Part shown: positions 1 to 36,560 of the stretch, piece after piece
How the letters are laid out: each line of letters begins with the position of its first letter
Numbering within the stretch: position 1 is the stretch's first letter
Source of the DNA: Pseudomonadota bacterium
GTDB lineage: Bacteria; Pseudomonadota; Gammaproteobacteria; Steroidobacterales; Steroidobacteraceae
NCBI GenBank assembly: GCA_016704655.1
Contig: JADIZR010000007.1
Coordinates: 1,348-65,347, forward strand
DNA length: 64,000 bases
Reading direction: 5' to 3'
The notes under the pieces: model-generated
The model's input: the letters and a program-made list of their open reading frames with translations, nothing else
Told to the model about the DNA's origin: nothing
Database searches by the model: none
Program-made: the position numbers and the translations under genes

Positions 1-80
1 TAGGCGGCCACGAGCCTGCGGGCCGTCGCCTGCGCATCCGAGCGCTTGCCCGACTCGAGTTGGAACGACGTCAGCGCCAT
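1..80 (-). CDS. partial CDS (5' end only), unknown product
   Basis: ATG at 80-78 on the minus strand overlaps the TGA of the upstream cytochrome gene (ATGA). It reads MALTSFQLESGKRSDAQATARRLVAA and runs off the window. Confidence 0.3.
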   Translation of the reverse strand, partial: MALTSFQLESGKRSDAQATARRLVAA

Positions 81-2257: not shown

Positions 2258-2288
2258 CCCGCTCGATCCATTTGCAAAGACTTCGGGC

Positions 2289-4359
2289 TCAGGGTGCTGG
2301 CGGGGCCGGGACGAACGCTTTCGTTCCAGGCATGATCTCGAAATACTGATCGAACTCGCCAAGGCTCCCCATCAGTTGCTTCAGCACGTCCGCATTGCCG
2401 GCCAGGCTGGCCCGGCCGGCGGCGGCCTGGGAGGCGAATGTCGCTTTGCGCATCATGATCGGCTCGAGGTCCGCGCGGTTGATCGTGATGGTGAGGTCCG
2501 CGTCCTGCGCCTGGTACCCCTGGATGTTCGTCAGCGTCGCATGGCTGAGTTCGAGCACATGCTGTTCACCGTTGTCGGGCGTCACGAGGTTGATCCTGAA
2601 GGCCAGCCCGTCCGCCTTGCGGCTGTCGAGCAGGATACCCAGGTAGTCGAGCCACAGTTCCGTCGTCATGGCGCGCACGGTGTCCGGCGAAGCCGACTGC
2701 GGCAGCAGGCCGCTCGGGATGCCCGACCGCAGTTCATGCGCAGCGGCGAGGAAGCTGTTGCGCAGGCTCGAGCTTTCCTTCTGGTAGCCCACCTGTTCGA
2801 AAGCGTCGGCGAGCAGGTTCCTGGCGGCCTGGTTTGGCGGGCTGCGCGAACACGAGCTTGTTCAGCAGCTCGATCGCCAGCCGATACTCGCCGGCCGCGT
2901 ACAGTTCGCGGGATCGCGCGACGATCTTGTCGGCACCTCCCATCATTTCGACGTACAGCGGCGCGGAATCCCGCGGCGAGGTCGGCACGAGCGTGGCCGG
3001 ATTGCCGTCCCAGTAACCGAGGTAGCGATTGATGACCGCACGGCTGTTGTGTTCTTCCGACCCGTGGTAACTGCGCGCTGCCCAATCCTGCTGCAGGCTG
3101 GCGGGCAGGCGGTAAACATTCTGGATCTCGTTGATCGTCACGCCCTGGTTCGCGAAGTGCAGCACGTCGTTGTTCAGGTTCGCGTACGCGTCGCGCTGTG
3201 TGCGCATGACTTCCTGGATGCGGGCGTTGCCCCAGCGGGGCCAGGTGTGCGCTGCAAACATCACCTCGGCCTGCGGGCCGAAGCGGTACAGGGCCGCGTT
3301 GATGTATTTCGACCATTGCAGCGCATCGCGGACGAGCGCTCCGCGCAGCGTGTAGATGTTGTGGATCGTGGCCGTGATGTTCTCCGCGGCCCAGAACGCC
3401 TTGAACTGCGGGAACCAGGTATTCATTTCGGCCGGCGCTTCGGTGCCCGGCGTGTTCTGGAACACCATCGTCACGCCATCGACGACGATTTCCTCTATGT
3501 CTTTGGCTACGAGCCGCGTAGGTGCGATCAGGCCCGTGGTACCCGAGGAGGCCCGCTTGCCGATGGCCTGGTCGACATGGCCGAACGGACTGGACGGCAG
3601 CAGCATGCCGTACTGGTACATCGCACGACGGATCATCGCGTTGCCGGCGTAGACATTCTCCGAGATGGCCGCCTCCATGAAGCCGACGGGCGCGATGACC
3701 TGCACCTTGCCCGCCTTGACGTCGGCCTCTTCGATCACGCCGCGCACACCGCCGAAATGGTCGATGTGCGAGTGCGAGTAAACGACTGCCACGACGGGAC
3801 GGGCGCCAAGTTGCTCATTGGCAAATGCGAGCGCCGCGGCGGCAGTTTCCTGCGAGACGAGCGGATCGAAGACGATCCAGCCGGAATCGCCCTTGACGAG
3901 GGTGATGTTGGAGAGGTCGAAGCCGCGCACCTGCCAGATTCGGCCGGGCACGACTTCAAAGAGTCCGTACTGCGCATTGAGCACGGCCTGCCGCTGCAGC
4001 GACGGGTGGATGCTGTCGAAGTCCTCCTTTGTGTCGAGGAACGCGTAGCGGCCGAAATTCCAGGCTGGTGTGCCTCGCGCGGTCTTGATTTCGGTGTACG
4101 TGGGCGCCGCGACGAACCCTCGCTTCGACTCCTCGAAGTCCCGCTTGTCCTCGAACGGCAGCGACGATCGCGCCATGCGCTGCAACGCCACCGTCGCCTG
4201 CGAGGGCGGCTGTGCCTGCGGGTGAACGTGTGCGCTGGGCACAGGATTTCCCACCGCCCCAGTGTCACGGGCTCCCGCATTCAGTGGAGCGCACGCGCCC
4301 CAGACTGTGAGTACCAGCAAAGTCTTGAGACTGTCGAATCCAGCCATGCCACTCTCCAC
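2289..4359 (-). pseudogene. MBL-fold alkyl/aryl-sulfatase (SdsA1/Bds1 type) interrupted by a 1-nt frameshift
   Basis: ORF 2734..4359 has a signal peptide and the MBL motif HSHIDHFGG, and ends ...LNKLVFAQPAKP. The reading continues in another frame as [28 protein letters not shown]... (ORF 2289..2792, SCP2-like C-terminal domain). Dropping one base of the TTT run at 2834-2836 restores a single ~690-aa ORF. Confidence 0.8.
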
Positions 4360-21717: not shown

Positions 21718-22380
21718 ATGCGAATCCTGCTGGTCGAAGACGATGCATTGCTCGGCGACGCACTACAGGTCGGCCTGCGCGAGCATGGCTTCGCGGTCGA
21801 GTGGATCAGAGACGGCGCGGCAGGAGAAGCTGCGCTGGCCTCCGACGAATTCACGGCAATCGTGCTCGACCTGGGGTTGCCGCGCATGTCCGGACTCGAA
21901 CTGCTGCAGCGTGTGCGAAATCGCGGAGATCACACGCCCGTGATCATCCTCACTGCGCGAGAAGCCGTCGATGATCGCGTGCGCGGCCTCGATCTCGGCG
22001 CCGACGACTACGTCGTGAAGCCTGTCGCACTCAAGGAGCTCGCGGCCCGACTGCGAGCCGTTGCTCGTCGCGCGCAGGGCATTGCGAGTGGATCGATCAT
22101 CGTGGGCAGCCTGTCGCTGGACCTCGCCTCGCGTGCCGTAACGTTCGAAGGCAATCCAGTCGAACTGCAGCCGCGCGAGTTCGCGCTGTTGCAGGAACTG
22201 GTGTTGCGTGCGGGCCGGGTCGTCACACGCACTCAGCTGGAGACCCAGCTGTACGAATGGGACCGCAGCATCGACAGCAATGCAATCGAGGTTCACGTCC
22301 ATCATCTGCGGCGCAAGCTCGCACCCACGCTCATCCGGACAGTGCGTGGCGTTGGCTACATGATCCCGCGCGAAGACTGA
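21718..22380 (+). CDS. OmpR/PhoB-family response regulator
   Basis: MRILLVEDD...DLGLPRMSGLELL receiver domain plus a winged-helix C-terminus. Confidence 0.9.
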   Translation: MRILLVEDDALLGDALQVGLREHGFAVEWIRDGAAGEAALASDEFTAIVLDLGLPRMSGLELLQRVRNRGDHTPVIILTAREAVDDRVRGLDLGADDYVVKPVALKELAARLRAVARRAQGIASGSIIVGSLSLDLASRAVTFEGNPVELQPREFALLQELVLRAGRVVTRTQLETQLYEWDRSIDSNAIEVHVHHLRRKLAPTLIRTVRGVGYMIPRED

Positions 22381-22383
22381 AAC

Positions 22384-23737
22384 GTGCGAACTCACTCGAT
22401 CCGCCGGCATATGCTCACGCTGCTGCTACTCACGCTCACCGGCACGTGGCTGGCGTCTGCGGCCCTGACTTACCGCGAAGCGCATCGGGGCATCGATGCC
22501 TTGCTCGACGCACATCTGGCCCAGGCCGCGCGGATGCTGGTGGCGCAGGCGGGCCACGAACTCGAGGAACTCGACTTCGATGAGAATTCGACGCCCGCCG
22601 GACTTCCGCACCAAGGTTGCCTTCCAGGTGCGCGAGGCGGATGGGACGCTCATTCTTCGCTCAGCCAACGCCCCGACGACGCCGTTCGCCGGGCCGGTCA
22701 GCGGTTTCAGCGAAGCTGTGTTCGGTGACATTTTCTGGCGCGTGTATTCGGCAACCGAAGCCGCGCAGGGCGTGGTCGTGCACGTGGCGGAAGACCACGC
22801 AACGCGCGAACGGATCGCGCGACGCGTCGCCCTGAGCGCACTCGTCCCACAGCTCGTCGCACTGCCCCTGCTCGGGCTCGCGATCTGGTGGGTCGTTGGT
22901 CGTTCGCTGCGTCCGTTACGGCGGCTGGCGGAGCAACTCGCCCACCGCAGCCCCGACGATGTTCGGCCGCTGGCCGCGGGACCGATGCCCGTCGAGTTGA
23001 CGAGTCTCGCCGAACGGCTCGAGGAACTCCTGTCGCGGGTTCGTGACTCGCTCGATTCAGAACGACGGTTTACCTCGCATGCTGCCCATGAATTGCGTAC
23101 GCCGGTCTCTGCAATGCGCGCGCAGGCGGAGGTGGCGTTGGCAACCATTGACCCTGACGTCCGCGACGCGGCACTGCGTCATGGCATCGAGGCCTGCGAT
23201 CGAATGACACGGCTCGTGACGCAGCTGATGCAGCTTGCCCGTGTGGACGAAGCCGGTCACCTTGCAAGTGCGACTTCGTGCGAACTGCGTGCGATTGCGG
23301 AACGTGTGCTGGCGGACAGCGCGCCGGCAGCAATGCAGGATGGAAATTCGGTAGCGCTGGAGGCGTCGGATCCCGGGCGCGTTCTTGGCGACGGCGCATT
23401 GCTCGAGGCGCTGGTGCGTAACCTGGTCGACAACGCACTTCAACATGGCGGACCACACGGCGAGGTACGGGTGGGGCTGGTGCAGCATGACCGCCAGATC
23501 CGGCTCACCGTCGAGGACACGGGACCCGGTGTGACACCGGAAACACTCGAACGACTTGGCCGACGTTTTTACCGCGCGGCTGAAGCGACGGCCACGGGCA
23601 GCGGACTGGGGCTATCGATCGTCAAGCGGATCACGGAGTTGCACGGCGGCTGCGTGAGCTTTCGCAATGGCGATGCCGACCGTGGGCTGCGGGTCGAGGT
23701 CACGATCCCAATGCAGGGCTGCGAGCGTTCGAATTAG
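22384..23737 (+). pseudogene. sensor histidine kinase (QseC/PmrB-like) split by a 1-nt frameshift
   Basis: The N-terminal TM and sensor part (ORF 22384..22728, ...AQAGHELEELDFDE) continues in the +1 frame as FRTKVAFQVREADGTLILRSANAP... It includes the H-box FTSHAAHELRTPV and an HATPase domain (ORF 22496..23737). The frame change lies within ~22585-22606. Confidence 0.8.
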
Positions 23738-25755
23738 CTCGATCGGATGCGTGCCGCAACGGCGTCAAAGCCGCGCGCGGCTGCCGCATCGGCTGCGGCA
23801 ATCCCGTCACGGTTGCGCAGTGTCTTCTTCGCACCCGCCTGCAGCAACAGGTCGACCACGTCGCCCGCGCCTGCCTGACTCGCCAGGATCAGCGCGGTAT
23901 CGCCGAACGTGTTCTGCGCATCCAGCCCAACTCGCAATGCGACCAGCCTGCGCACGATCACGGCGTGGTTGCCGCGAGCCGCGAGCATCAGAAGTGTGTC
24001 GCCCGAGCGGCTGAGTGCCTGCACCTCGGCGCCTGCACGCAGCAGCTTGTCGAATGCCGCGTCGTTGCCGCGCGCCGCCGCGCAGGCGATGGGCGTAACG
24101 CCGTCGGCGGCCGCCGCATTCACATTGGCTCCGGCACCCAGCAGCAGCGCAAGGACCGCGGCGTCATCGCGGCACGCAGCGTGCCAAAGCGCGGTGTACC
24201 CGGTGGCATCTGTCGTTTCAGGACTCGCACCCGATCGCAGCAACAGCGACACCATGGCCGCATCGCCTCGCTGCGTCGCGAGGACCAACGACGCGTCATC
24301 GCCCTTGCCCGTGTCGGCTCTGGCTCCGTGCGCCAGCAACACCTGCACGATGCCTGCATTACCCCGGCGAACCGCGGTAGTGAAAGGCGCGCCGTCGCTG
24401 GCGCCATGCTCGTTCGGATTGGCACCGCGCTCGAGCAGCATCCGCACGATGTCCTTGCGTCCGTGACTGACGGCCACGCCCAGCGGTGTGTGGCCCGCGC
24501 GATCCGGGCGCGTCGGCGACGCGCCTGCTGCGAGCAGCACACCGACGCTGGCGGACGAAGACGCGGCGATGGCGACCTGCAGTGCTGGCTGGCCAGCGGC
24601 CGTCGTAGCCTCCGGGTCGCCGCCCCGGCCGAGCACCGATTTCAGCATGGCCGGATCGGTGCGACTTGCTGCGAGCGCCACGTCCGGCCAACCGGCATAG
24701 GCATCGCCTGCCGCAGCGCGAAGAATTGGGCCAGCCGACCTTGGGCCGGGTCCGGCGCCCGTAGTGCGCCTGCGCGCCGGTTGTGCGCCGTGCTGGACCA
24801 GGAAGCCGGTGACCGCGTCCTGTCTTGATTGCACCGAGTAATCCACGGCGCTCCAGCCGCCCGCATTACGCAACTTTGGGTCAAGGCCCGCGGCCACCAG
24901 GCGCTCGGACTGTGTGACGCGGCCACGGCGCGCCGCGTAGAGCAGAGCCGAGTTCCCGAGCGCATCCACCGCGGCAATGTCGGGTTTCGACAGCATCAGC
25001 ACTTCCAGGGCGTCCGCGCGCTCGGCCGTCGCGGCCAGCATCAAGGGTGTGATTCCCTGCGCGTCGATCGCATCGACTCGGGCGTCGTGTGCAACCAGCC
25101 AGCGCACCGATTCTGCAGCGCCCGACTCGGCTGCGTGATGCAGCACCGAACGACGGAATGCGTCGCTGGCATCTTCCGGCAGTAGCGGCCAGAGCGCGGC
25201 CAGCGTGTCGACGTCACCGCGGCGCACAGCTGCGATGGTCATCGACAAGGTCACTGCGGGTTCGGTTGCAAGGACGCGAGGATCCACTTGCAGTGGCAAC
25301 TGGCCTGCCTGCAGCAGGCGCGCCGCATCGGCGTGCCCAGCCGCCGCGGCCGTGTCGAGCCAGGTCCGTGCCGCTGATTCGTTTGCAGGCGAGTCGTACG
25401 CCGCAAGCGCTGCCAGTGCATACGCCGCGCGTGGCTCGCCCTTGGCTGCCGCGGCCTCGAAGAGAGTCCGCGCACGTTGCGAGTCCTCGCCGACGCCGAG
25501 ACCGGCCAGGTACAGGGTGCCCAACAGGTATTGCGCGCGTGAATCGCCGGCCAGCGGATCGGTCGCGAGCCGCCCGGCTGCATCCGCGAATTGCTTCAGA
25601 CGCAGCGCGCTCTTGGCCGGCTCGAGCAGGTCCGGCGCCGCGAACTTTGATGGAGTTGCGGCAACTGCCTGCACTGCGCCCAACGCACCGAACGAACACA
25701 GGAGCAGGGTGGCCAGCGCGGCGGCGCGAGCAGCTGAAGGGTCATGCCGTCCCAT
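23734..25755 (-). CDS. secreted Sel1-repeat plus ankyrin-repeat protein
   Basis: Signal peptide MGRHDPSAARAAALATLLLCSFGALGAVQAVAA. Sel1-like repeats (AQYLLGTLYLAGLGVGEDSQRARTLFEAAA) are followed by ~12 ankyrin repeats (G.T.L..AA..G....V..LL..GA). Confidence 0.8.
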   Translation of the reverse strand: MGRHDPSAARAAALATLLLCSFGALGAVQAVAATPSKFAAPDLLEPAKSALRLKQFADAAGRLATDPLAGDSRAQYLLGTLYLAGLGVGEDSQRARTLFEAAAAKGEPRAAYALAALAAYDSPANESAARTWLDTAAAAGHADAARLLQAGQLPLQVDPRVLATEPAVTLSMTIAAVRRGDVDTLAALWPLLPEDASDAFRRSVLHHAAESGAAESVRWLVAHDARVDAIDAQGITPLMLAATAERADALEVLMLSKPDIAAVDALGNSALLYAARRGRVTQSERLVAAGLDPKLRNAGGWSAVDYSVQSRQDAVTGFLVQHGAQPARRRTTGAGPGPRSAGPILRAAAGDAYAGWPDVALAASRTDPAMLKSVLGRGGDPEATTAAGQPALQVAIAASSSASVGVLLAAGASPTRPDRAGHTPLGVAVSHGRKDIVRMLLERGANPNEHGASDGAPFTTAVRRGNAGIVQVLLAHGARADTGKGDDASLVLATQRGDAAMVSLLLRSGASPETTDATGYTALWHAACRDDAAVLALLLGAGANVNAAAADGVTPIACAAARGNDAAFDKLLRAGAEVQALSRSGDTLLMLAARGNHAVIVRRLVALRVGLDAQNTFGDTALILASQAGAGDVVDLLLQAGAKKTLRNRDGIAAADAAAARGFDAVAARIRSS

Positions 25756-27051
25756 ATTTCGTCTCCACGTGAATCCCGACTCGCCGCAGGAAGTCGGAGG
25801 GCAGGATGCCGCCGGCGCTGACGATCACCGCGTCGTTCGGCAGAATCAGGTGACCGTCCTGGCTGCGCAGCAGAACCCGCTCCTGCTCGATGCGCTCGAC
25901 CTTTGACTGCAGCAGCAGTTGCAACTGTCCGGCGCGTTCGGCAGCGGCGATCCGGTCGCGGTTGCGGGGCTTGGCACGCGTGAACGCGTCGCCACGATAG
26001 GAGAGTGTGACCTGGCCGCCCGCTTCCGCGACGCTGGCAGCCGCCTCCAGGGCGCTGTCACCGCCACCCACGACCAGGACGCGCTGTCCGCGGTACTGCT
26101 CCGGGTCGATCAACCGGTAGACGACTTTGGGCAAGTCCTCGCCTGTCACGTCGAGCTTGCGTGGCGTGCCGCGCCGGCCGATCGCCAGCAGTACTTTCGC
26201 TGCCCGGTATTCCGCGAGTGAGGTCCGAACGATGAAGCCTTGCGCACCATCGCGATCGACGCTCTCGACGCGCTCACGATACCGCATGCTGCCGGCCACC
26301 CCGGTCTTGCGTTCGATATCCTGCCAGAACGCAAGCAGGTCTTCCTTGGAGGTCTGGCGAAAGCTGACCTTGCCCACCAATGGAATTTCTGCCGGTTGCG
26401 TCATCACGAGCTTGGCCCGCGGATACTGGAAGACGCTGCCGCCAAGACTCTCCTGTTCGATCGTCACGAATTGCATCTTGTGCGACTTCGCGGCAAGGCT
26501 GGCCGAAAACCCTGCGGGACCCGCACCCACGATCACGAGATCCAGTTGCCCTGGGATGGCTGTGCGCAGCTTGCGATGGATCGCGTCGACCGCCTGCCTG
26601 CCCTGCGCCAGCGCGTTGCGAATGAGGCCCATTCCCCCCAGTTCCCCCGCAACAAAGAGCCCCGGCACGGTCGACTCGAACTCCGGGCTCAGCAATGGAA
26701 TCTCCACGCCACGGCGTTCCGTGCCGAAAACAAGCGTGATCGCGTCCGCAGGACACGCGGCACGGCACGCACCGTGCCCGATGCAATCCGTCGGACTCAC
26801 CAGGTGCGCCTTGCCGTCGATCAGCCCAAGCACATGGTGTTCCGGTTGTTCCGGACAGGCTTTCACGCACGATCCGCACCCGATGCAACGGACGGGATCG
26901 ATCACGGGATGCAGGGAAGCGGGTCGATCAAGCCCGCGGCGACCGACTGCTCCCGCACGGTGCGGCTCGCATCCTCGTGTCGTCTACGCCGGACGAGGTA
27001 CCAGCCCCATATCAGTAAGAGTGGCAGCAGGTAGACGGCGAGCAACGACAT
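25742..27051 (-). CDS. membrane-anchored 2x[4Fe-4S] ferredoxin-domain / FAD-NAD(P)-binding oxidoreductase; N-terminal anchor is in another frame
   Basis: ORF 25742..26905 has CIGCGSCVKACPE and CIGHGACRAACP clusters, then VIVGAGPAGFSASLAAK and a thioredoxin-reductase-like fold. The ATG 27051 frame upstream encodes MSLLAVYLLPLLLIWGWYLVRRRRHE...AAGLIDP and shifts by -1 near GGG 26921-26923 into ASLHPVIDPVRCIGCG. Alternatively the gene simply starts at GTG 26905. Confidence 0.7.
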
Positions 27052-27256
27052 CGATGTTGAGCCTGCAATCGTCGAGGGTAGTCGCGGTCGACGCATGCGG
27101 CAAACATAGCGCCTGGAGCAAGCCTCGCATCCCGCTCGCCCGCACGGTGTCGACTGCGTCACGATTACATCAACTAATCGTTCGGGTCGGTGTCCCTCAA
27201 CCTCCCGCCTCGCTATGTTCTCGTCTCCGGTCGACTCCGACTGGCGGGAGACGACG

Positions 27257-27898
27257 ATGCAGACGAGAAATGCCGCGCTGATCGCGCTGGCGGGTTTTGC
27301 ACTGGGAGTGTTCGTCGGCAAGGGACCGACCGTATTCGAAACTGACAGCACGACCGACACGCTCGAGCCCGTTACCGGGATGGCTTCGGTGCCGGTCGGC
27401 CATCCGCGCCTTGCAGAACGCGGTCTCGGCGATGTCGTGATGACGACATTACAGATGCGCGCCGCGCCTGCTGCCAATGCGTCGGCGATGGTGCCAGGCG
27501 CTGCTGCGCGTGCCAGATCGACGGACCTGATCGCGCAGGCCGACGACCTCCGGCGCCAACGAAGATCCGGCGAAGCCGTCGAGGCCTACCGTCGCGCTGC
27601 GGCCTCGGGCCGCATGAACGCGGATTCCTGGGCTGACTACGCCGATGCACTGGCTTCGGCCGGATCGAGCCTCAAGGGAGCGCCCGCGGATGCGCTGGCG
27701 CAGGCGCTCGCGCTCGACCCGCGGCATCCCAAGGCTTTATGGCTCAAAGCCAGCCTCGAGCACGAGGAACACCACTACCGCGACGCCGTCAGCACGTGGC
27801 GCAACCTGCTGGCCGTGGTGCCAGCCAATTCGTCCGACGCCCGCATCATCGAAGCGAACATCGCCGAAGCGTCGCGACTTGCCGCCGGCCAGGGCTGA
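27257..27898 (+). CDS. membrane-anchored TPR protein resembling the C-terminal (apocytochrome chaperone) part of CcmI/CycH/NrfG
   Basis: TM anchor MQTRNAALIALAGFALGVFVG. C-terminal region is ALALDPRHPKALWLKASLEHEEHHYRDAVSTWRNLLAVVPANSSDARIIEANIAEA. Confidence 0.55.
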   Translation: MQTRNAALIALAGFALGVFVGKGPTVFETDSTTDTLEPVTGMASVPVGHPRLAERGLGDVVMTTLQMRAAPAANASAMVPGAAARARSTDLIAQADDLRRQRRSGEAVEAYRRAAASGRMNADSWADYADALASAGSSLKGAPADALAQALALDPRHPKALWLKASLEHEEHHYRDAVSTWRNLLAVVPANSSDARIIEANIAEASRLAAGQG

Positions 27899-27900
27899 CA

Positions 27901-28872
27901 ATGACTGCACAACGCCTTCTCCGGGAACGGTATGACGATGTCGTCGACGAAAGCGCGCCGCGCATCACGACGCCTGCAACCGTTGACACCTCCCGCAAGA
28001 AAGTTGCCGCTCCAGGCGCGGCAGCCGCCAAGGGAGCGGCGAACCGCAGCCGGTTGCTCACGCCAGCCAGCATCTACTTCATGGCCGTCCTCGCAGCGAT
28101 CGCCTTCGGCATCAACCTGCCGACGTCCGCTTACCTCTCCCCGCAGTCCGGTCTCGGCTATGCGCTCGGAATCGCCGGCGGCAGCGCGATGTTGCTGCTG
28201 CTCCTCTATCCGGTCCGCAAGCGAATGCCGAATGCACGCTACCTCGGGTCCACGCGCGCCTGGTTCAGGCTGCACATGACGCTCGGCATCTTCGGGCCCG
28301 CGCTCATCCTGTTTCATTCGAACTTCAGCCTTGGCGCGACCAACAGCAACGTCGCGCTGGTCTGCATGCTCATCGTTTCCGGCAGCGGACTCTTCGGCCG
28401 GTACTTCTACGGTCACATCCACCAGGAACTGAATGGACGCGAAGCCACGCTCGACGAACTGCGGGAGTTCTCGAGCCGGCTGCAACTGACGTCGTCGGTG
28501 TCCTTCCTGCCTGCGCTGGCGCGGCACATCGACGCGGAACAGACCGTCATCGAGCGCCGCTTTGCGGCGACCGCGCTGCTGCTGCAACCGCTGCTGGGTG
28601 CAGCTTGGGCAATCGGCGCAAGACGTCGACTGCGGCGTGCAGTCCGTGAAGCCATTGCTGCGGGAGCCGACCGTCGTCACGACCCGACCCGCGAATCGCT
28701 GCAACTGATCGCGTATCGCTACATCGACGATCGCATCAGCGCGGCGCGGCGCGTGCTCGAGTTTCGTGCTTTCCAGAAGCTCTTCTCGCTGTGGCACGCC
28801 TTGCACCTGCCGCTCTTCGTCATGCTCATCATCGCCGGGACCGTCCATGTGGTCGCGGTACACATCTACTGA
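27901..28872 (+). CDS. polytopic membrane protein with two His-x13-His pairs (putative dihaem b-type cytochrome)
   Basis: ATG 27901 lies 2 nt after the previous TGA. About 5-6 TM helices. One helix carries RLHMTLGIFGPALILFHSNF (His and His+14). The last helix carries WHALHLPLFVMLIIAGTVHVVAVHIY (His and His+14). Confidence 0.6.
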   Translation: MTAQRLLRERYDDVVDESAPRITTPATVDTSRKKVAAPGAAAAKGAANRSRLLTPASIYFMAVLAAIAFGINLPTSAYLSPQSGLGYALGIAGGSAMLLLLLYPVRKRMPNARYLGSTRAWFRLHMTLGIFGPALILFHSNFSLGATNSNVALVCMLIVSGSGLFGRYFYGHIHQELNGREATLDELREFSSRLQLTSSVSFLPALARHIDAEQTVIERRFAATALLLQPLLGAAWAIGARRRLRRAVREAIAAGADRRHDPTRESLQLIAYRYIDDRISAARRVLEFRAFQKLFSLWHALHLPLFVMLIIAGTVHVVAVHIY

Positions 28873-28890: not shown

Positions 28891-30456
28891 ATGCCCCGCT
28901 GGCACAGCGCCTGCCGACTCCTGTTCGCGATCCTGGGCCTGACGATGTCACCGTTGAGCGCCCGAGCGGCGAACCTCGAGACGTTGCTGATGCCCGGGCC
29001 GGTCATCGCGGGTCACGCGAAATACGAACAGGAGTGCTCGCGCTGCCACGATCGCGCGGATCGTTCGCGGCAGGCGGTCCTCTGCCGCACTTGTCATGAG
29101 CCCGTTGCCGCCGATATTGCGCAACACAAAGGATTCCATGGTCGATTGCGCGGAGCAGAGGCCGCCCAGTGCGGCGCCTGCCACACCGAGCACAAGGGCC
29201 GGCCGGCCGACATCGTCAAGCTCCAGCCGGCTTCGTTCCCGCATGCCCAGACGGACTTTCCGCTGCAGGGAGCACACGCGACAGTAGCGTGCACGGCTTG
29301 CCACCAGGAAGGCCGCAAACATCGCGAAGCGGCGTCCGCGTGCGTCGAGTGTCACAAGCAGGACGACCTGCACGAGGGCAAGCTTGGCCGCGATTGCTCC
29401 AGCTGCCACGACGCCGGAGGCTGGTCACGCGTGCGGTTTGATCACGCAAAGACCCGGTTCGCGTTGACCGGCAAACATGTGCAGGCGACCTGTGCGTCCT
29501 GCCACCTGGGCAACCGGTACAAGGACACCCCAACCCAGTGCGCTGCCTGCCACGCGCCTGATGACGTCCACGGTGGCGCGCGCGGGGCCGGCTGCGCCGA
29601 CTGTCACCAGACGACCGGTTGGACCGGCACCAGGTACGACCACCTGAAGACCAGCGGATTTGCGCTCACGGGCGCGCACTCCTCGCTCGATTGCAGGACG
29701 TGTCACAAGACGTCGAATTTCAAGGACCCGTTGCCGAGGGACTGCGCGGGTTGCCACCGCAGCGACGATCCGCACGCCACCCGCTTCGGTGCAGGCTGCG
29801 AGAAGTGCCATGCCGCAAGCGGCTGGACGCCTTCGAGTTTCGATCACACCCGCGATGGCAAGTTCGAGCTGCGCGGAGCGCACGAGAAGCTGAACTGCCA
29901 TGTCTGCCACACCGGGGTAATCGCCAGCCAGAAGCTCGGCACGGAGTGTGCCGGATGCCACCGGGCGGATGACGTGCATGCGGGCAACCTGGACACCGAC
30001 TGCGCGCAGTGTCACGGCGTGGAGACGTGGCGCGGGCATCTGCAGTTCGATCACGACTTTTCGACGTACCCGCTCGTGGGGCTCCACGTCGCGGTTCCCT
30101 GCTTTGCGTGTCATCGCTCAACGTCGTTCAAGGACGCACGGCAGACGTGTGTCGACTGCCACGAGGCGGACGATCGTCACAAGGGCTCACTCGGCCGGGA
30201 CTGCGAAACATGCCATTCGGTCAACGGCTGGAACCTGTGGCAGTTCGATCACGGCAAATCCACCAAGTTCGCCCTGACGGGTGCGCACTCGAAGGTGGCC
30301 TGCGCAGGCTGTCACAAGCAGCCCGCACACCTGGCGAAGCTGTCGCAGGACTGCGCGGCGTGCCATGCCGAGGACGACGTGCACCTCGGTCAGTACGGTC
30401 GGCAATGCCAGCGCTGCCACGTGACCACGACTTTCAAGGCTGCGCGGCTGCAGTGA
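28891..30456 (+). CDS. 21-haem periplasmic c-type cytochrome built from seven c7-like triheme modules
   Basis: Signal peptide plus 21 CXXCH motifs. The recurring module is FDH..T.F.L.G.H....C..CH - ~11 aa - C..CH..DD.H.G..G..C..CH. Confidence 0.9.
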   Translation: MPRWHSACRLLFAILGLTMSPLSARAANLETLLMPGPVIAGHAKYEQECSRCHDRADRSRQAVLCRTCHEPVAADIAQHKGFHGRLRGAEAAQCGACHTEHKGRPADIVKLQPASFPHAQTDFPLQGAHATVACTACHQEGRKHREAASACVECHKQDDLHEGKLGRDCSSCHDAGGWSRVRFDHAKTRFALTGKHVQATCASCHLGNRYKDTPTQCAACHAPDDVHGGARGAGCADCHQTTGWTGTRYDHLKTSGFALTGAHSSLDCRTCHKTSNFKDPLPRDCAGCHRSDDPHATRFGAGCEKCHAASGWTPSSFDHTRDGKFELRGAHEKLNCHVCHTGVIASQKLGTECAGCHRADDVHAGNLDTDCAQCHGVETWRGHLQFDHDFSTYPLVGLHVAVPCFACHRSTSFKDARQTCVDCHEADDRHKGSLGRDCETCHSVNGWNLWQFDHGKSTKFALTGAHSKVACAGCHKQPAHLAKLSQDCAACHAEDDVHLGQYGRQCQRCHVTTTFKAARLQ

Positions 30457-30469
30457 TGGGAAGGCAACC

Positions 30470-33400
30470 ATGAAGCTGCAATGGATCTGCCGTGCACTGC
30501 TGCCCTTGCTGCTGCTGGCTGCGGGCACCGTGTCAGCCCAGGTGACCGGGCGCAACTTTGACCACCTGACGACAGGATTCGAGCTTACTGGCGCGCATCG
30601 TCTGCAGGCCTGCGAGAGCTGCCACGTCGACGCCGTGTTCGCCGGCACCCCACGAGTGTGCGCGGCGTGCCATGCACAGAGGTCGCGCATCGGAGCGACA
30701 CCGAAGCCGTCGGCTCACGTGGCCTCCACGGACAACTGCGGCGCGTGCCACACCACCTCGGGCTGGATACCGGCAGGACGATTCGATCACCTGGAAGCGC
30801 GCGGTGATTGCGCAACCTGCCATGACGGGCTGCAGGCGCAGGGCAAGCCGGCGGGCCACCTCACGACCAGCCAGGAGTGCTCGAGTTGCCACAGCAATAC
30901 GGCCTGGAGTCCCGCGAAATACAACCACTCCGGCATCACCGGCGTGTGCGCCTCCTGCCACGACGGCGTCAGAGCAACGGGGAAGCGGGCCACTCATCCG
31001 CAGACGACGAGCAGCTGCGAGTCGTGCCACACGATCGCGGCCTGGGCCCCGATCAGCCGCATTGACCACACGCAGGTCAGCGGCTCCTGCGCGTCGTGCC
31101 ATGACGGCACGTCTGCGACGCGCAAGCACGCATTGCATGTACCGACTACCGCGACGTGCGACACCTGCCACGTGACAGTCGCGTGGCAGCCAGCCAGCTT
31201 CGCTCACGACGGTATCGTCGACGGCTGCGCCAGCTGCCATGACGGGGCGCGGGCCACCGGCACCGGACCGCGTCACATCAAGGCGACGAACACCTGCGTG
31301 GCCTGTCATTCGATGACGGCATGGCAGCCGGCAACGCGCGTGGACCACGCCAACGTGCTGGGCAGCTGCTCGACCTGCCACGACGGACTCGCGGCCAGCG
31401 GACAGCCGGCCAATCACATTCCCACGTCGGCGGAATGCGACAGCTGCCATGCGACCAACGCCTGGACTCCCGCCAGGTTCGATCACACCGGGATCGCCAC
31501 CAACTGCGCCTCCTGTCACGACGGCACCCGCGCCACAGGCAAGAGTCCGACCCACATCAATACCTCGACGACCTGCGAGTCATGTCACGTCATCGCGGCC
31601 TGGCAACCCGCGTCGCGTGTCGATCATGCCCAGGTGCTCGGCAGCTGCGTCTCCTGTCACGATGGCACCGTTGCAACCGGCAAGAACGCCACGCACATCC
31701 TGTCCGACAATGCCTGCGAGAGTTGCCACACGACCGTCCAGTGGCAGCCCGCCAACTTTTCACACACCGGGCTGACGGAAACCTGCTCAGCCTGCCACGA
31801 CGGTACTCGGGCCACCGGCAAGAGCACGACGCACATCATCTCGAGTACCTCCTGTGGCGCCTGTCACGCGACGTTCTCGTGGCGCCCGGTCACGCAGGTC
31901 GACCACACACAGGTGAGCGGCAGCTGCGCCTCGTGCCACAACGGCACGACGGCCACCGGCAAGAACGCGGGTCACATCGCCTCCAGCACGGCCTGCGCTG
32001 CCTGCCATGCCACGCTGGCATGGAAGCCCGTCACAAGCGTGGATCATGCGCAGGTCACCGGCGCGTGCTTCTCCTGCCACGATGGCACCCTGGCCACCGG
32101 CAAGCCGTCCGCTCACATTCCGAGCGACAACTCCTGCGACAACTGCCATTCGCCGCTGGCATGGCAGCCAGCGCGCTTCGACCACACGGGCATCACGGTC
32201 AACTGCGCCAACTGTCACGACGGCATCAAGTCTCAGGGCAAGCCGACGACGCACATAACCAGCAGCAGCACGTGCGAGTCCTGTCACGCCGTGGCGGCCT
32301 GGAAGCCGGCAACGAGCGTCGACCACACCCAGGTGACGGGAACCTGCGCCAGTTGCCACGACGGCGCCAGGGCGACCGGCAAGGGCGTTAACCACATCCC
32401 GACCAGCGGCGAATGCGGCACGTGCCACGCCACGATCGCGTGGCAGCCGGCAACGTTCTCGCACACTGGTATTACCAGCGGTTGTGCCAGCTGCCACGAC
32501 GGGATCAAGGCGCCGGGCAAAAACGCCACGCACCTGTTCACGTCATCGACCTGCGAAGCCTGCCACTCCGTGACGACCTGGAAGCCCGCGACCCGCGTCG
32601 ACCACGCGCAGGTGCAGGGTTCGTGTTCGAACTGCCACAACAACATCAAGGCGACGGGCAAACCGGCGACGCACGTCGTTACGACGTCCGAATGCAGCAT
32701 GTGCCACGGCACGCAGGCCTGGAAGCCAGCGACGGGCTTCACGCACGACGGCATCACGGCCGCATGCGCGACCTGCCACAACGGCGTGAACGCGACGGGC
32801 AAGAACACCAGTCACCTGCAGACGAGCAATACCTGCGAGTCCTGCCATACCCCCACTGGCTGGAAGCCGGCGGCGAAGGTGGACCACACACAGGTCATCG
32901 GCACCTGCTTCTCGTGCCACAACGGCACGCTTGCGACCGGCAAGAACTCGGGTCACATCGCAAGTGACAACGCGTGCGACAGCTGCCACCAGTCGACGGC
33001 GTGGAAGCCGACGATCCGGGTCGATCACGCGCACGTCACCGGAACGTGTTCCAGCTGCCACGATGGCGTGCAGGCGGCGGGCAAGCCCACCACGCACCTG
33101 CCGACGACAGCCGAGTGCGGCAGCTGTCATTCAACCCTGGCCTGGACACCGGCGAAGGTGGATCACACCAGCATCACGAACTGCAAGGGTTGCCACAACG
33201 GCTCCAGCGCGACGGGCCCGTCGACCAGCCACATGACCTTCCCGGTCAACAGCTTCGACTGCAACCAGTGCCACACCACGACGGCCTGGTCGCCGAACAC
33301 GTTCAAGCACCGCGTGGGTGGCGGCTACCCGGGCGATCATCGTGTGGCGCTGACCTGCAGGAGCTGTCACACGACCGGCACGGATGCCGCCACCTGGCGC

Positions 33401-33610
33401 ACGCCGGCCTACAAACCCGACTGCGCAGGTTGCCATTCCAGCAATTTCAAGCCCGATCCGCACACCAAGTACGGCAACGTGAAGTACACCGTCAGTGAAC
33501 TGCGTAACTGCTCGGGAGCGTGCCACACCTATACGGACTCCACGCTCACGAAGATCTTGAAGAGCCGCGCCGGTCCGGAACATCGCATCACGGACACGGA
33601 ACTTCACTGA
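30470..33610 (+). CDS. giant multihaem c-type cytochrome: 41 CXXCH plus one CX3CH
   Basis: Sec signal MKLQWICRALLPLLLLAAGTVSAQ. There are 41 CXXCH motifs at ~23-aa spacing plus a terminal CSGACH. Consensus repeat is C.SCHDG..ATGK...H..T...C..CH...AW.PA..VDH..V.G. Confidence 0.9.
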   Translation: MKLQWICRALLPLLLLAAGTVSAQVTGRNFDHLTTGFELTGAHRLQACESCHVDAVFAGTPRVCAACHAQRSRIGATPKPSAHVASTDNCGACHTTSGWIPAGRFDHLEARGDCATCHDGLQAQGKPAGHLTTSQECSSCHSNTAWSPAKYNHSGITGVCASCHDGVRATGKRATHPQTTSSCESCHTIAAWAPISRIDHTQVSGSCASCHDGTSATRKHALHVPTTATCDTCHVTVAWQPASFAHDGIVDGCASCHDGARATGTGPRHIKATNTCVACHSMTAWQPATRVDHANVLGSCSTCHDGLAASGQPANHIPTSAECDSCHATNAWTPARFDHTGIATNCASCHDGTRATGKSPTHINTSTTCESCHVIAAWQPASRVDHAQVLGSCVSCHDGTVATGKNATHILSDNACESCHTTVQWQPANFSHTGLTETCSACHDGTRATGKSTTHIISSTSCGACHATFSWRPVTQVDHTQVSGSCASCHNGTTATGKNAGHIASSTACAACHATLAWKPVTSVDHAQVTGACFSCHDGTLATGKPSAHIPSDNSCDNCHSPLAWQPARFDHTGITVNCANCHDGIKSQGKPTTHITSSSTCESCHAVAAWKPATSVDHTQVTGTCASCHDGARATGKGVNHIPTSGECGTCHATIAWQPATFSHTGITSGCASCHDGIKAPGKNATHLFTSSTCEACHSVTTWKPATRVDHAQVQGSCSNCHNNIKATGKPATHVVTTSECSMCHGTQAWKPATGFTHDGITAACATCHNGVNATGKNTSHLQTSNTCESCHTPTGWKPAAKVDHTQVIGTCFSCHNGTLATGKNSGHIASDNACDSCHQSTAWKPTIRVDHAHVTGTCSSCHDGVQAAGKPTTHLPTTAECGSCHSTLAWTPAKVDHTSITNCKGCHNGSSATGPSTSHMTFPVNSFDCNQCHTTTAWSPNTFKHRVGGGYPGDHRVALTCRSCHTTGTDAATWRTPAYKPDCAGCHSSNFKPDPHTKYGNVKYTVSELRNCSGACHTYTDSTLTKILKSRAGPEHRITDTELH
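30690..33240 (+). repeat. in-frame tandem repeats (~138-141 bp, ~18 copies) inside the 41-haem cytochrome gene
   Basis: Periodic TGC..TGCCACGACGGC / GCCTGGCAGCC / GTCGA(C/T)CAC blocks. Copies are clearly diverged at the nucleotide level. VDH..V.G.C and F.HTGI...C subtypes partly alternate, giving a ~280-bp super-repeat. Confidence 0.85.
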
Positions 33611-35986
33611 TGCGCCCAGGTATTCGACTGCTGCTCGCCGCCAGCGCCGTCCTGGCCAACCTGGCGGCCACTCCGCTCCGGGCACAGGGCCGGATCGTCG
33701 AAGACGTCGTGGCGAGCGAGCAACGCGGCTACGTGTCCGTTACGCTGCTCTTCAGCTGTTCGATGCGCTACCTGTCGCACACGCCGGCTACCGATGGCGA
33801 AGCATTGCAGGTCCGCTTCTCGGCGGGCCCGGATTGTGGCCGGACATCTGCCTCGGAACCGCAGCCGCTGCTGGCCGGCGCGGCGGGTTTCGTGCGCTCG
33901 GTCGACGTCGTGCGACCGTTCGGCTCGGAGGTCCAGGTCCGGATCGGCTGGTCGAAGCCCGAAACGTTCGTGCTGACGCCTTCGATCGACGGGCGCCTGT
34001 TGCGAGTCAGGCTGCTGCGCACCGAGACACCGCAGGTTACGGTGCAGGAAATGCCCCAGGGCACCTCCACGTACGCCGTAAACCTGGCCTCGTCGACCAC
34101 CCCTCACACCCGATGCACTCGCAGCCGCCGCAAAGGTCGCGGGCACGCGCACCTACGTTTCGGCGACCGTCGTCGACGAGCAGCGCTGGTACCGCCTGCG
34201 GGCCGGGCCTTTCGTCAACGAGGCGGCAGCCAGGCAGGCACTGGCCAATTCGCGCAGCGAATTCCCGAAAGCCTGGATCGCGATTTCGGATGACGACACG
34301 CTGAACGAGATCGGCACTCCTTCGGGCGTGGCGACCGTGCGGTCAACCGCCCCGCAGGTCAACGCCTCGATGACGCCGGATGAAATCAAGGGAACCCTGG
34401 CCCAGGCCAAAGTTGCGTTCCGCCACAAGGATTACGCCACGGCGATCCCGCTGCTGACGCAGATCACGCAGCAACCCGAGTTTCCGCAACGGGCCGAAGC
34501 GCAGGAAATGCTCGCTCTTGCGCGCGAACGCAGCGGCCAGGTCGCTCACGCCAAGGCCGAATACGAGGACTATCTGCAGCGGTATCCAACCGGCGACGGC
34601 CCCACGCGCGTGCGCAAGCGGCTGCAGGCCCTGGCCTGGGCCAGCCGCCCTGGTCGCAGTGGCGCGGCAGATAGCGACCATGACGAATCCCCGTGGCGAG
34701 TCTACGGCGGCTTTTCGCAGATTTATCGCCAGGACCAGAGTCACCTCGAGAGCGGTCTCGCCGTCAGCGACCAGACGACGCAGAACGCCTTGCTCAGCGA
34801 CGTGAGTCTCGTTGCGCGTCGCCACGGCGAACGCTTCGACTTCACCACACGCGCGAGCGCGGGTTACAGCTACGACATGCTTGCCGACGGGCCGGGAAGC
34901 CAATCTCGAGTGTCGATGTTGTTTGCCGAGTTCGCCGACCGCATTGCAGGCTGGTACGCCCGCCTCGGCCGCCAGGCCGGCGGCTCGGCCGGACTCATGG
35001 GAACGTTCGACGGGATGCAGGCGGGGTACCAGCTGTGGCCCCGGCTGCGCGTCAATGGCTTCTTCGGCTTCCCGGTGGATTCGACACGCGAAGGGCCGGA
35101 CAGCGAGCGCAGGTTCGTCGGCATCTCTGCTGACGTCGGCACGCTCGCGAACGCCTGGGATCTCTCGTTCTATGCCGTCGACCAGCAGTATTCCGGCGTG
35201 ACGGACCGGCAGGCCGTCGGCACCGAGGTGCGGTACTTCCGGCCCGGCATCACGCTGGTCGGACTCGCGGATTTCGACATCCACTACAGCACGCTCAATA
35301 CCGTGCTGCTGCTGGGCACGTTCGCGCTGCCTGCGCGCTGGACGCTGAACCTGAACCTCGATCACCGCAAGAGTCCAGGCCTGTCGACGCGCAATGCCAT
35401 GATTGGGCAGCCAGTGCGCCGGTTCGACGAACTGTTCGGCCTGTACACACCCCAGGAGATCGAGCAACTTGCGCTCGACCGCACGTCGGAGTCGACGATG
35501 TACTCGGCGGGCGTATCGCGACCCTTCGGCGAGCGATGGCAGTGGTCGCTCGATGCGTCGACCATGACTCTCGGCTCGACGCGCGAATCGGGCGGGGTGC
35601 CCGCCACGCCGTCGTCGGGAACGGACACCGCGGTCTCGACGCAGGCCATGGGCTACGGATTGTTCGGCCGCGGCGACGTCACGTCACTGGGCCTGCAGTA
35701 CCAGACGGGCGAGAGCGCGCAGATGCTTTCGCTCGGCGTCGGCGCCCAGCTGCCTGTCGGCGAGCGTTGGCGCGTCGGCCCCCGGCTGCGCCTGGATCAA
35801 CGCAAGCTCGAGAGCGACCGGTCGACATCGCTCGTGTATTCACCGGCGCTGCGGGCGGAGATGCGCGGCAAGCACCTGACGTTCGAGGTGGAGGGCGGGG
35901 CCGAGTTCGGATCGCGCGACCTCGGCACGAGCTCCGAGGACACGTCGCGTTACTATTTCAGCCTTGGCTATCGCTATGACTTCTAG
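33610..35986 (+). CDS. outer-membrane protein: signal peptide, N-domain, SPOR domain, TPR-like region and beta-barrel; a single ORF only after correcting a 1-nt frameshift at ~34100
   Basis: ATG 33610 overlaps the TGA of the cytochrome gene. Frame 1 reads MRPGIRLLLAASAVLANLAATPLRAQG...STYAVNLASSTT, then turns Arg-rich. From the C4 run at 34100-34103 the +1 frame reads PLTPDALAAAAKVAGTRTYVSATVVDEQRWYRLRAGPFVNEAAARQALANSRSEFPKAWIA (SPOR-like). It runs without a stop into ORF 34328..35986, which has a TPR-like segment and then amphipathic beta strands ending YYFSLGYRYDF. Confidence 0.65.
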
Positions 35987-36560
35987 CGGTCATTCCGGCG
36001 GCGATGGGACACAGGTCTGCAGGACCGTCTCGGTCGCGCTGGCAGCTGGAACATTGCTCGCTGCAATCCTCATGGCAGGCTGCGCCAGCGAGCAACCGGC
36101 CGGTCCGCGCGAATACCTCGACGAACGCACTGCTGCGACGATCACGGTGGCTGGCGAACCCATGGTCTTCGCCTGCGATCGCCCCGAACTGGGTGTGAAC
36201 GCGCGCGACTACGTCACACTGACCGCTGTGGACGTCAACACGTCCGGCAGGCATGCCACGCATCTCGTGGGTTACTCCTGGTCGACGCTGGACAAGCGCG
36301 CCATCAAGGAAAGCGACAGCGACTACGAAGTCATTGCCGATGATCGAACGCTGTCGCTGCAGCCGATGCCGGACGGATTCCGCGCGATCGGCGTCAACGA
36401 ACCACCGATTCCAGTCCCTTCACGCGGCGCCCTGCCGCTGACGGCGCCGATCACCCGGGATCAGCTGCTGTTTCTGCGGGACACCTCTGGCGCGCACATC
36501 GTGCGAACGCGCGACGGGGTCACGGAACGGTTCGAACTCTGGCGCGGCCCCGGCCACTGA
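35976..36560 (+). CDS. lipoprotein of unknown function
   Basis: ATG 35976 overlaps the end of the barrel gene. Lipobox AAILMAGCASE. No recognisable domain. Confidence 0.55.
   Translation: MTSSGHSGGDGTQVCRTVSVALAAGTLLAAILMAGCASEQPAGPREYLDERTAATITVAGEPMVFACDRPELGVNARDYVTLTAVDVNTSGRHATHLVGYSWSTLDKRAIKESDSDYEVIADDRTLSLQPMPDGFRAIGVNEPPIPVPSRGALPLTAPITRDQLLFLRDTSGAHIVRTRDGVTERFELWRGPGH

Follow-up and report, generated by a model that had tools for sequence, protein, structure and literature searches.

CymA, CbcL, ImcH and CbcBA of Shewanella and Geobacter form the inner-membrane link to periplasmic multihaem cytochromes, and are haem-c quinol dehydrogenases, some with a HydC-type cytochrome b. In the Hmc and Tmc complexes of sulfate reducers, a periplasmic multihaem cytochrome c, a membrane cytochrome b of the NarI type and a cytoplasmic Fe-S protein of the HdrD type are encoded together and link the periplasmic and cytoplasmic redox pools, with no outer-membrane conduit. 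The 'PCC3' porin-cytochrome gene clusters, defined by He et al. (2017; Front Microbiol 8:1584, PMC5566968), contain an inner-membrane protein (IMP) that is conserved and about 300 amino acids long, with five transmembrane helices (TM1–TM5), an SGxxG motif on TM4 and two W-x3-H-x13-H motifs, on TM3 and TM5. These authors likened the IMP to the ferric-reductase domain (FRD) and to cytochrome b, and put it forward as a carrier of two haems b in electron exchange with the quinone pool; the periplasmic cytochromes of the published clusters have 21, 24 or 27 haems. Here we analysed a 64,000-nucleotide stretch of DNA, called the window below, from a Steroidobacteraceae bacterium (GenBank assembly GCA_016704655.1, contig JADIZR010000007.1, positions 1,348 to 65,347 of the forward strand), in which the gene at positions 27901–28872 (the target) encodes a PCC3 IMP.

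The target open reading frame (ORF) runs from ATG to TGA on the plus strand and encodes 323 amino acids. Only the two bases CA lie between the TGA of the preceding TPR gene (27896–27898) and the target ATG, and 18 nucleotides separate the end of the ORF from the ATG of a multihaem cytochrome c gene at 28891. These coordinates agree with the original prediction, made from the window alone, which had placed the start two nucleotides past the previous stop and haem-c genes directly downstream. Because close relatives (98–51% identity) share both start and length, we take 27901 as the true start, and not that of a longer ORF from 27739. The target and its parts are as follows.

27901–28872, plus strand: PCC3-type IMP of 323 amino acids, a putative dihaem cytochrome b, identified by BLASTP to the PCC3 IMP of Sideroxydans lithotrophicus ES-1.
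28252–28317, plus strand: TM3, residues 118–139, with W121-x3-H125-x13-H139; G129, G132 and P133 are on the same face of the helix.
28339–28410, plus strand: TM4, residues 147–170, with N148 and S162-G163-x-x-G166 (SGxxG), assigned from conservation and coevolution.
28411–28788, plus strand: helical Arg-rich domain, residues 171–296, predicted to be cytoplasmic and a candidate docking module, with 21 K+R against 15 D+E.
28789–28869, plus strand: TM5 and C-terminus, residues 297–323, with W298-H299-x2-H302-x13-H316-x4-H321-x-Y323, assigned from conservation.

All five defining features of the PCC3 IMP family were found. The 323-residue length with five predicted transmembrane helices fits the family, both W-x3-H-x13-H motifs are present (W121-H125-H139 on TM3 and W298-H302-H316 on TM5), TM4 carries the SGxxG motif as S162-G163-L-F-G166, and directly downstream lie genes for a cytochrome with 21 CxxCH motifs, a cytochrome with 41 CxxCH motifs and a porin-like protein of about 790 amino acids (split in the window). 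By BLASTP, residues 57–323 of the target were 36% identical (E 1e-56) to ADE11683.1 of S. lithotrophicus ES-1, a protein reached via a Gallionellaceae representative from the profile search described below (P0268, Sideroxyarcus emersonii). Downstream of ADE11683.1 in CP001965.1 are genes for cytochromes with 24 and 28 CxxCH motifs and an 862-amino-acid outer-membrane protein; 24 and 28 are the counts published for Slit_1447 and Slit_1448 in the PCC3 cluster Slit_1446–1449. Since the motifs, the neighbours and the ES-1 homology all agree, the target is a member of the PCC3 IMP family. The protein had initially been presented as possibly novel and assignable to no named family, a description that does not hold, as PMC5566968 contains both the motifs and the dihaem hypothesis. 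The dihaem hypothesis is a reasonable one for the target, yet already published for its family; the new element is a flavoprotein/ankyrin module described below.

Two His pairs of 14-residue spacing, R123-L-H125...H139 and A300-L-H302...H316, were read in the translation just as first quoted (codons at 28273–75, 28315–17, 28804–06 and 28846–48 for H125, H139, H302 and H316, respectively). The target has 10 His residues and exactly two i/i+14 pairs, and two or more such pairs arose in 2.6% of 100,000 shuffles of its own composition. Thus, the i/i+14 motif by itself is only mildly unusual, and the evidential weight rests on its conservation.

To that end, homologues were collected in two ways. 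A word-indexed search found at least 2,002 of them, the nearest in a Steroidobacteraceae metagenome-assembled genome (MAG); all were annotated 'hypothetical protein' and none had a Pfam domain. An exhaustive profile search of 1.84 billion cluster representatives gave 3,072 clusters at E ≤ 1e-3, of which 652 also passed E ≤ 1e-30. Conservation was counted in the best 150 representatives, each from another 50%-identity cluster and 32–52% identical to the target. Lack of conservation of the four His in homologues had been named as a refutation of the haem hypothesis; they were essentially invariant (H125, 149/149; H139, 149/149; H302, 142/143; H316, 143/143). The Trp residues of the motifs were conserved in 143/149 (W121) and 144/145 (W298) representatives. 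On TM3, G129 and P133 were each found in 149/149, and G132, like K107, was invariant or nearly so; on TM4, S162, G163 and G166 were found in 150/150 each and N148 in 149/149. Gly, Ser or Ala dominated the positions between the paired His. The conserved positions on TM2, TM3, TM4 and TM5 recur every 3–4 residues, and the conserved residues of each helix therefore share one face. Beyond the four presumed haem ligands, H174 (137/150), H299 (142/144), H321 (136/143) and Y323 were 91–99% conserved. The first two are at the membrane's cytoplasmic edge, the last two at the C-terminus in the periplasm. All are candidate residues of a quinone or partner site and of the contact with the cytochrome c.

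Hydropathy analysis revealed five strong segments (residues 53–71, 84–102, 120–138, 142–160 and 305–323). A moderately hydrophobic stretch (221–239) lies inside a long basic helix of the AlphaFold2 (AF2) model; a six-helix topology using it was rejected, as the most basic segment would then fall in the periplasm. Lys and Arg residues numbered 10 in the N-terminus, 5 in loop 2–3 (with no acidic residue) and 21 in loop 4–5, and loops 1–2 and 3–4, of about 10 residues each (PTSAYLSPQSG and SNFSLGATNSN), had no charged residues. By the positive-inside rule, this distribution makes the N-terminal end cytoplasmic and the C-terminal end periplasmic. In that arrangement TM3 and TM5 share an inside-to-outside orientation, which would bring H125 and H302 close to the cytoplasmic face of the membrane, with H139 and H316 close to the periplasmic one. 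The soluble insertion of some 110 residues that the original prediction saw between the two His helices does exist, as a domain of about 125 residues (171–296), but TM4 (about 147–170) also intervenes.

We carried out mean-field direct-coupling analysis on 494 sequences (effective number, 244). Antiparallel couplings were found between TM2 and TM3, TM3 and TM4, TM4 and TM5, and TM2 and TM5, with registers (i+j) of about 227, 290, 464 and 407, respectively; TM1–TM3 couplings were parallel, and direct TM3–TM5 couplings were nearly absent. This pattern is the signature of a four-helix bundle of TM2–TM5 with TM3 and TM5 placed diagonally. When the registers were chained, H125 came level with residues 299–305 and H139 with residues 313–319, bracketing H302 and H316; residue 162 was level with H302 and residue 148 with H316. 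The predicted separation of the two His within a pair is about 21 Å along the helix (14 residues at 1.5 Å). Matched-depth His pairs on diagonal helices, with small residues in between, are the geometry of bis-His dihaem cytochromes b. Topology and His depth had been proposed as checks of the haem hypothesis, and the matched depths predicted for H125/H302 and H139/H316 are compatible with haem ligation.

AF2 modelling with 86 diverse sequences gave a predicted local distance difference test (pLDDT) score of 83.5 for the whole model and of more than 90 in the transmembrane core. In the 171–323 region the model has helices at 184–193, 203–220, 226–255 and 262–322, with TM5 extending far into the cytoplasm as a 60-residue helix. 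A first run with 31 close homologues (pLDDT 63.6) was discarded, its Foldseek matches being meaningless.

Taken together, these results point to the target as the inner-membrane subunit of a PCC3-type porin-cytochrome conduit that would act by a four-step mechanism, a reading to which, as a whole, we assign a probability of about 0.62. It builds on the motifs, their conservation, the topology signal, the coevolution packing, the ES-1 homology and the gene neighbourhood, and would extend from them, by inference, to the binding of haem, to which way electrons flow and to which partners stand on each side. The protein would have five helices, with the N-terminus cytoplasmic, the C-terminus periplasmic and TM2–TM5 as a four-helix core. 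Two b haems would be bis-His ligated between TM3 and TM5, by H125/H302 on the cytoplasmic side and by H139/H316 on the periplasmic side, about 20 Å apart. Electrons would cross the membrane via this haem pair, between a partner facing the cytoplasm and the 21-haem cytochrome of the periplasm, for which the conserved periplasmic C-terminus (H316...H321-x-Y323) is a plausible contact. Through the porin, the 21-haem cytochrome would exchange electrons with the 41-haem cytochrome, in either direction. In this lineage the likeliest cytoplasmic partner would be FerFAD, a flavoprotein encoded next to the operon, with electrons flowing from NAD(P)H through FAD and [Fe-S] to haem b(N) and haem b(P); the long helical domain of the target and the conserved anchor of FerFAD suggest such a complex on the cytoplasmic side. 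The quinone pool may be an alternative or additional partner there. Of these parts, the assignment as a dihaem b transmembrane electron carrier stands, on motif and geometry, at somewhat better than even odds, and wiring from NAD(P)H through FerFAD to the inner haem is a tentative proposal at clearly less than even odds. The first of these had been the core of the original prediction: the matched-depth His, the FRD-like topology and the translational coupling to multihaem c genes make it the best-supported explanation, although not a new one.

The likeness to the FRD family (PF01794: NOX, Fre, STEAP, MsrQ) consists of the cytoplasmic N-terminus, the His pairs on TM3 and TM5 and their spacing, which is about 13 in FRD proteins and 13/13 in the target. 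FRD proteins have six helices, whereas the target has five, TM4 and TM5 being set apart by a helical insert of 125 residues. The cytoplasmic haem of NOX receives its electrons from a flavin/NAD(P)H module, a parallel to the proposed FerFAD link; the flavin domain of FRD proteins is a fused FNR-type domain, whereas the candidate partner here is a separate TrxR-type flavoprotein with Fe-S clusters. That the target works like an FRD or dihaem cytochrome b thus appears well supported, as judged from motifs and predicted topology.

The candidate partner is encoded together with an ankyrin-repeat protein. We compared 84 related loci, mostly Steroidobacteraceae MAGs but also including Woeseia, Thalassolituus, Thiohalomonadaceae, Methylococcaceae, Rhodospirillales, Sphingomonadales and a Thermodesulfobacteriota MAG. 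The two genes, which in the window are transcribed divergently from the TPR-IMP-cytochrome operon, are as follows.

25742–27051, minus strand: FerFAD, with a membrane anchor, a 2x[Fe-S] ferredoxin-like domain and a TrxR/YpdA/FNR-type FAD-NAD(P)H domain; 77/84 loci.
23734–25755, minus strand: ankyrin/Sel1-repeat protein of 673 amino acids with a signal peptide, its start overlapping the FerFAD stop; Pfam Ank/Sel1 matches on the homologue from locus L004; 73/84 loci.

The Fe-S motifs of FerFAD are CxxCxxCxxxCP and CxxHxxCxxxCP, and its flavin domain lacks a CxxC disulfide. In the second motif (residues 41–52 of the ORF at 25742–26905), His stands for the second Cys in 73/73 homologues, which would give a His-ligated or three-Cys cluster. 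Some electron-transfer chains have clusters of these kinds where electrons leave them. The N-terminal hydrophobic helix of FerFAD is followed by RRRR, which argues for an N-out/C-in orientation with the catalytic part in the cytoplasm. The anchor is conserved in sequence as Y-x2-P-x5/6-W-x-Y-x-RRRR (26905–27051 in the window; L001–L084), a hint that this helix makes specific contact with another, perhaps one of the IMP.

Six of the 84 loci lacked upstream DNA, and FerFAD was present in 77 of the remaining 78, the sole true exception being L048. It was divergent in most loci and co-directional upstream in L077 and L080. In four Steroidobacteraceae/Proteobacteria loci (L011, L012, L020 and L031), the IMP gene lies between the FerFAD and ankyrin genes, apart from the TPR-cytochrome operon, and so stays with FerFAD instead of the cytochromes. 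L089 (33% identity), from the most distant subfamily sampled, has FerFAD and Ank co-directional at the operon end, and L090 and L092 likewise carry both. This linkage, which survives rearrangement across orders, is strong evidence for a functional partnership between FerFAD and the IMP. FerFAD-IMP fusions were sought among the long representatives and none were found, the extensions being TPR, SPOR-like or of low complexity. PMC5566968 describes an Fe-S gene beside, and once fused to, the analogous IMP of 'PCC4' and mentions none for PCC3; in the literature open to search, no paper connected PCC3 with a flavoprotein of this kind or with ankyrin proteins. These findings suggest that the FerFAD/ankyrin linkage goes beyond the searchable PCC3 papers and that FerFAD is a candidate for the cytoplasmic partner. 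The window differs from the PCC3 clusters examined from ES-1 and other Gallionellaceae in the addition of FerFAD, the ankyrin/Sel1 protein, the TPR protein and a small downstream protein, none of which is named in the searchable PCC3 papers. We also noticed that the ES-1 IMP itself (P0287; UniProt D5CRU7, 301 amino acids) is named 'FAD-dependent pyridine nucleotide-disulfide oxidoreductase' in UniRef without having such a domain; the name may have been transferred from adjoining or mis-merged FerFAD genes.

The conserved link implies a cytoplasmic NAD(P)H- or ferredoxin-linked partner instead of, or besides, the quinone pool. In most PCC3-type clusters outside Gallionellaceae, the IMP and FerFAD might then form a split NOX-like transmembrane oxidoreductase, in which electrons would pass from NAD(P)H or ferredoxin through FAD, [Fe-S] and two haems b to the 21-haem cytochrome and on to the porin/41-haem cytochrome; we regard this generalisation as possible but doubtful. 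As the membrane potential favours export and opposes import, organisms with FerFAD, such as these Steroidobacteraceae, would more likely discharge electrons than take them up.

Several observations weigh against the conduit reading or its FerFAD branch. Pfam and NCBIfam scans of the target returned noise and no significant match, searches of PDB sequences, run with the target by itself or with the family profile, gave nothing but coiled-coil noise from the cytoplasmic domain, and no significant match to any haem-b family was obtained by HMM (hidden Markov model), PDB, Foldseek or hhalign comparison. Specifically, the target did not match PF01794 at E ≤ 1, and 3/86 family members did so at E of about 3; hhalign of the family profile with E. 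coli MsrQ, whose sequence was confirmed as PF01794, gave a probability of 0.1%. For PF01292, 3/86 members matched with a best E of 0.042, below threshold, and hhalign with E. coli CybB gave 0.25%; a profile against a single sequence is a weak test in both cases. Foldseek comparison of the pLDDT-83.5 model with the PDB had a best E of 0.96 and returned no FRD protein, although a local match may be hidden by the long helices of the cytoplasmic part; two chains of eukaryotic cytochrome b561 (E 1.6–4.1, TM-score about 0.2) were not counted as evidence. Membership in the ferric-reductase/NOX (PF01794) or PF01292 families, against which the original prediction had proposed an HMM search, is accordingly unsupported by HMM, profile or, for PF01794, fold comparison. 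Later papers still term PCC3 'functionally unverified', no family member has been purified, and PCC3 transcripts in ES-1 fell on Fe(II). In the window, FerFAD has a 1-nucleotide deletion at 26920/26921 (GACCC-GCTTCC against GACCCTGCTTCC in L003 and L004), which parts a 49-amino-acid anchor ORF from a 387-amino-acid Fe-S/flavin ORF and reflects either an error of assembly or genuine inactivation. Finally, the flanking DNA of the Gallionellaceae loci L085–L087 and L093, and of L091, contained no FerFAD, their clusters consisting of the four core genes only. FerFAD is therefore not a universal partner.

Some other families were also compared. Matches to DUF4405 (PF14358) below the cut-off of 26.7 bits occurred in 30/86 family members (best E 0.0016) and not in the target; the single alignment inspected, the only one found in two scans of 10 members each, covered TM5 alone. 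The relation is a weak lead. DUF4405 was shown to bind haem b and proposed to be a transmembrane electron carrier (Huang et al., 2024, mSystems, PMC11334425). Like the target, the DUF4405, MsrQ-like and PepSY-like flavinylation-associated cytochromes are small bacterial membrane proteins in which four central His are most conserved (PMC11334425), but DUF4405-type partners are flavinylated proteins, whereas those of the target are multihaem cytochromes c. The Hmc and Tmc complexes, compared here from general knowledge, follow the same logic as the window; homology to NarI-type or HdrD-type proteins was not detected. CymA, CbcL, ImcH and CbcBA hold the same pathway position as the target, which has no CxxCH motif and no similarity to them.

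The alternative that survives best is the model of He et al. (2017), in which the target would be a quinone-coupled dihaem cytochrome b, a functional analogue of CymA/CbcL/ImcH, and FerFAD unrelated or accessory. It is the published hypothesis for the family, and the Gallionellaceae clusters (IMP, two cytochromes and porin) speak for it, as their IMPs keep all motifs and the cytoplasmic domain with no FerFAD nearby; the conserved H174 and H299, at the cytoplasmic ends of TM4 and TM5, could form a quinone site. However, the target has no recognisable quinone-site motif and no homology to known quinol-oxidising cytochromes b, and the persistence of the FerFAD linkage through varied gene orders, together with the conserved anchor, is hard to explain if FerFAD is irrelevant. 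We therefore consider this model unlikely for the target, and the core-only clusters of iron oxidisers may nevertheless couple to quinones as PMC5566968 proposed.

Another explanation draws on the operon around the target, whose further genes are as follows.

27215–27898, plus strand: TPR protein with a single hydrophobic helix at the N-terminus and translational coupling to the IMP; sub-threshold similarity to CcmH/CycH/NrfG-like TPR; 59/84 loci.
28891–30456, plus strand: periplasmic multihaem cytochrome c of 521 amino acids with a signal peptide and 21 CxxCH motifs; 84/84 loci.
30470–33610, plus strand: second, larger multihaem cytochrome c of 1046 amino acids with a signal peptide, 41 CxxCH and one Cx3CH motif, presumed extracellular; 84/84 loci.
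33607–35986, plus strand: presumed porin of the outer membrane, TPR/SPOR-like in its N-terminal part; relatives have a single gene of about 790 amino acids.
35964–36560, plus strand: conserved protein of 198 amino acids with a lipoprotein-like N-terminus, downstream of the porin; no Pfam match; 56/84 loci.

The target could be a maturation or assembly factor that, with the TPR protein, handles haem or apocytochromes for the two giant cytochromes (62 haems), its His ligating haem only while in transit. The TPR neighbour is, below threshold, similar to the TPR domain of CcmH/CycH and to NrfG, and known haem-handling membrane proteins use conserved transmembrane His. Moreover, the TPR is fused to the N-terminus of the IMP in P0252, P0161, P0219 and P0231, and SPOR-like extensions are fused there in P0131, P0153 and P0144. 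From the TPR-IMP fusions, as far as gene architecture can tell, the IMP and the TPR gene upstream of it have a functional tie. Yet no extra transmembrane helix precedes the IMP in these proteins, and the fused TPR or SPOR-like domains would be cytoplasmic for that reason; the separate TPR protein of the window, unlike the fused forms, has a hydrophobic helix of its own. The TPR gene is missing from the Gallionellaceae clusters. Neither periplasmic loop of the target, at about 10 residues, is Trp-rich or has the WWD motif of CcmC/CcmF/CcsA, and no HMM match to these proteins was found. His pairs at both membrane faces also suit a wire better than a single transit site, and we judge a maturation role very unlikely. 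Least likely of all, and hardly credible, is a haem-free, His-lined protein for binding or transport of metal ions (Fe/Mn/Cu/Zn), or a sensor, beside the cytochromes: the 7 conserved His positions and the missing match to haem families would suit it, but the i/i+14 His at matched depths with Gly/Ser-rich faces between them are typical of bis-His haem sites, and the membrane part has no conserved acidic or Cys ligands.

Returning to the conduit reading, the IMP would be the meeting point of the conduit with the energy metabolism of the cell. The family is widespread, with at least 3,072 clusters at 50% identity from soil, sediment, groundwater and symbiont bacteria, and PCC3 clusters encode some of the largest multihaem cytochromes known. 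The haem content of the IMP and its use of quinone or of NAD(P)H/ferredoxin as a partner would decide whether PCC3 conserves energy or vents electrons, and in which direction they flow, and characterisation of the IMP would guide how thousands of 'hypothetical proteins' now outside any Pfam family are annotated. The linkage to FerFAD provides a concrete candidate for the missing cytoplasmic partner of PCC3 conduits; if the split NOX-like arrangement is true, cytoplasmic reducing equivalents would reach extracellular acceptors bypassing the quinone pool.

Among the remaining genes of the operon, the 21-haem count of the 28891–30456 product agrees with those of published PCC3 periplasmic cytochromes, the 41-haem product likewise fits the extracellular ones, and the 198-residue protein may be an unrecognised part of an extended cluster. 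The porin gene is split in the window into ORFs 33607–34293 (228 amino acids) and 34328–35986 (552 amino acids), and blastn of this region to L003 showed 10 gap positions over 2.4 kb. A histidine kinase gene next to an OmpR-type response regulator gene (21718–22380) also appears split between two overlapping frames, 22384–22728 and 22496–23737, one with the N-terminal membrane/sensor part and the other with the remainder. The frame breaks in the porin, FerFAD and kinase genes suggest indel errors typical of long-read assemblies. Some 25 kb away from the PCC3 cluster, positions 80–2362 (minus strand) encode a 760-amino-acid protein with Paired_CXXCH, c554 and c552-like multihaem domains and a C-terminal TPR.

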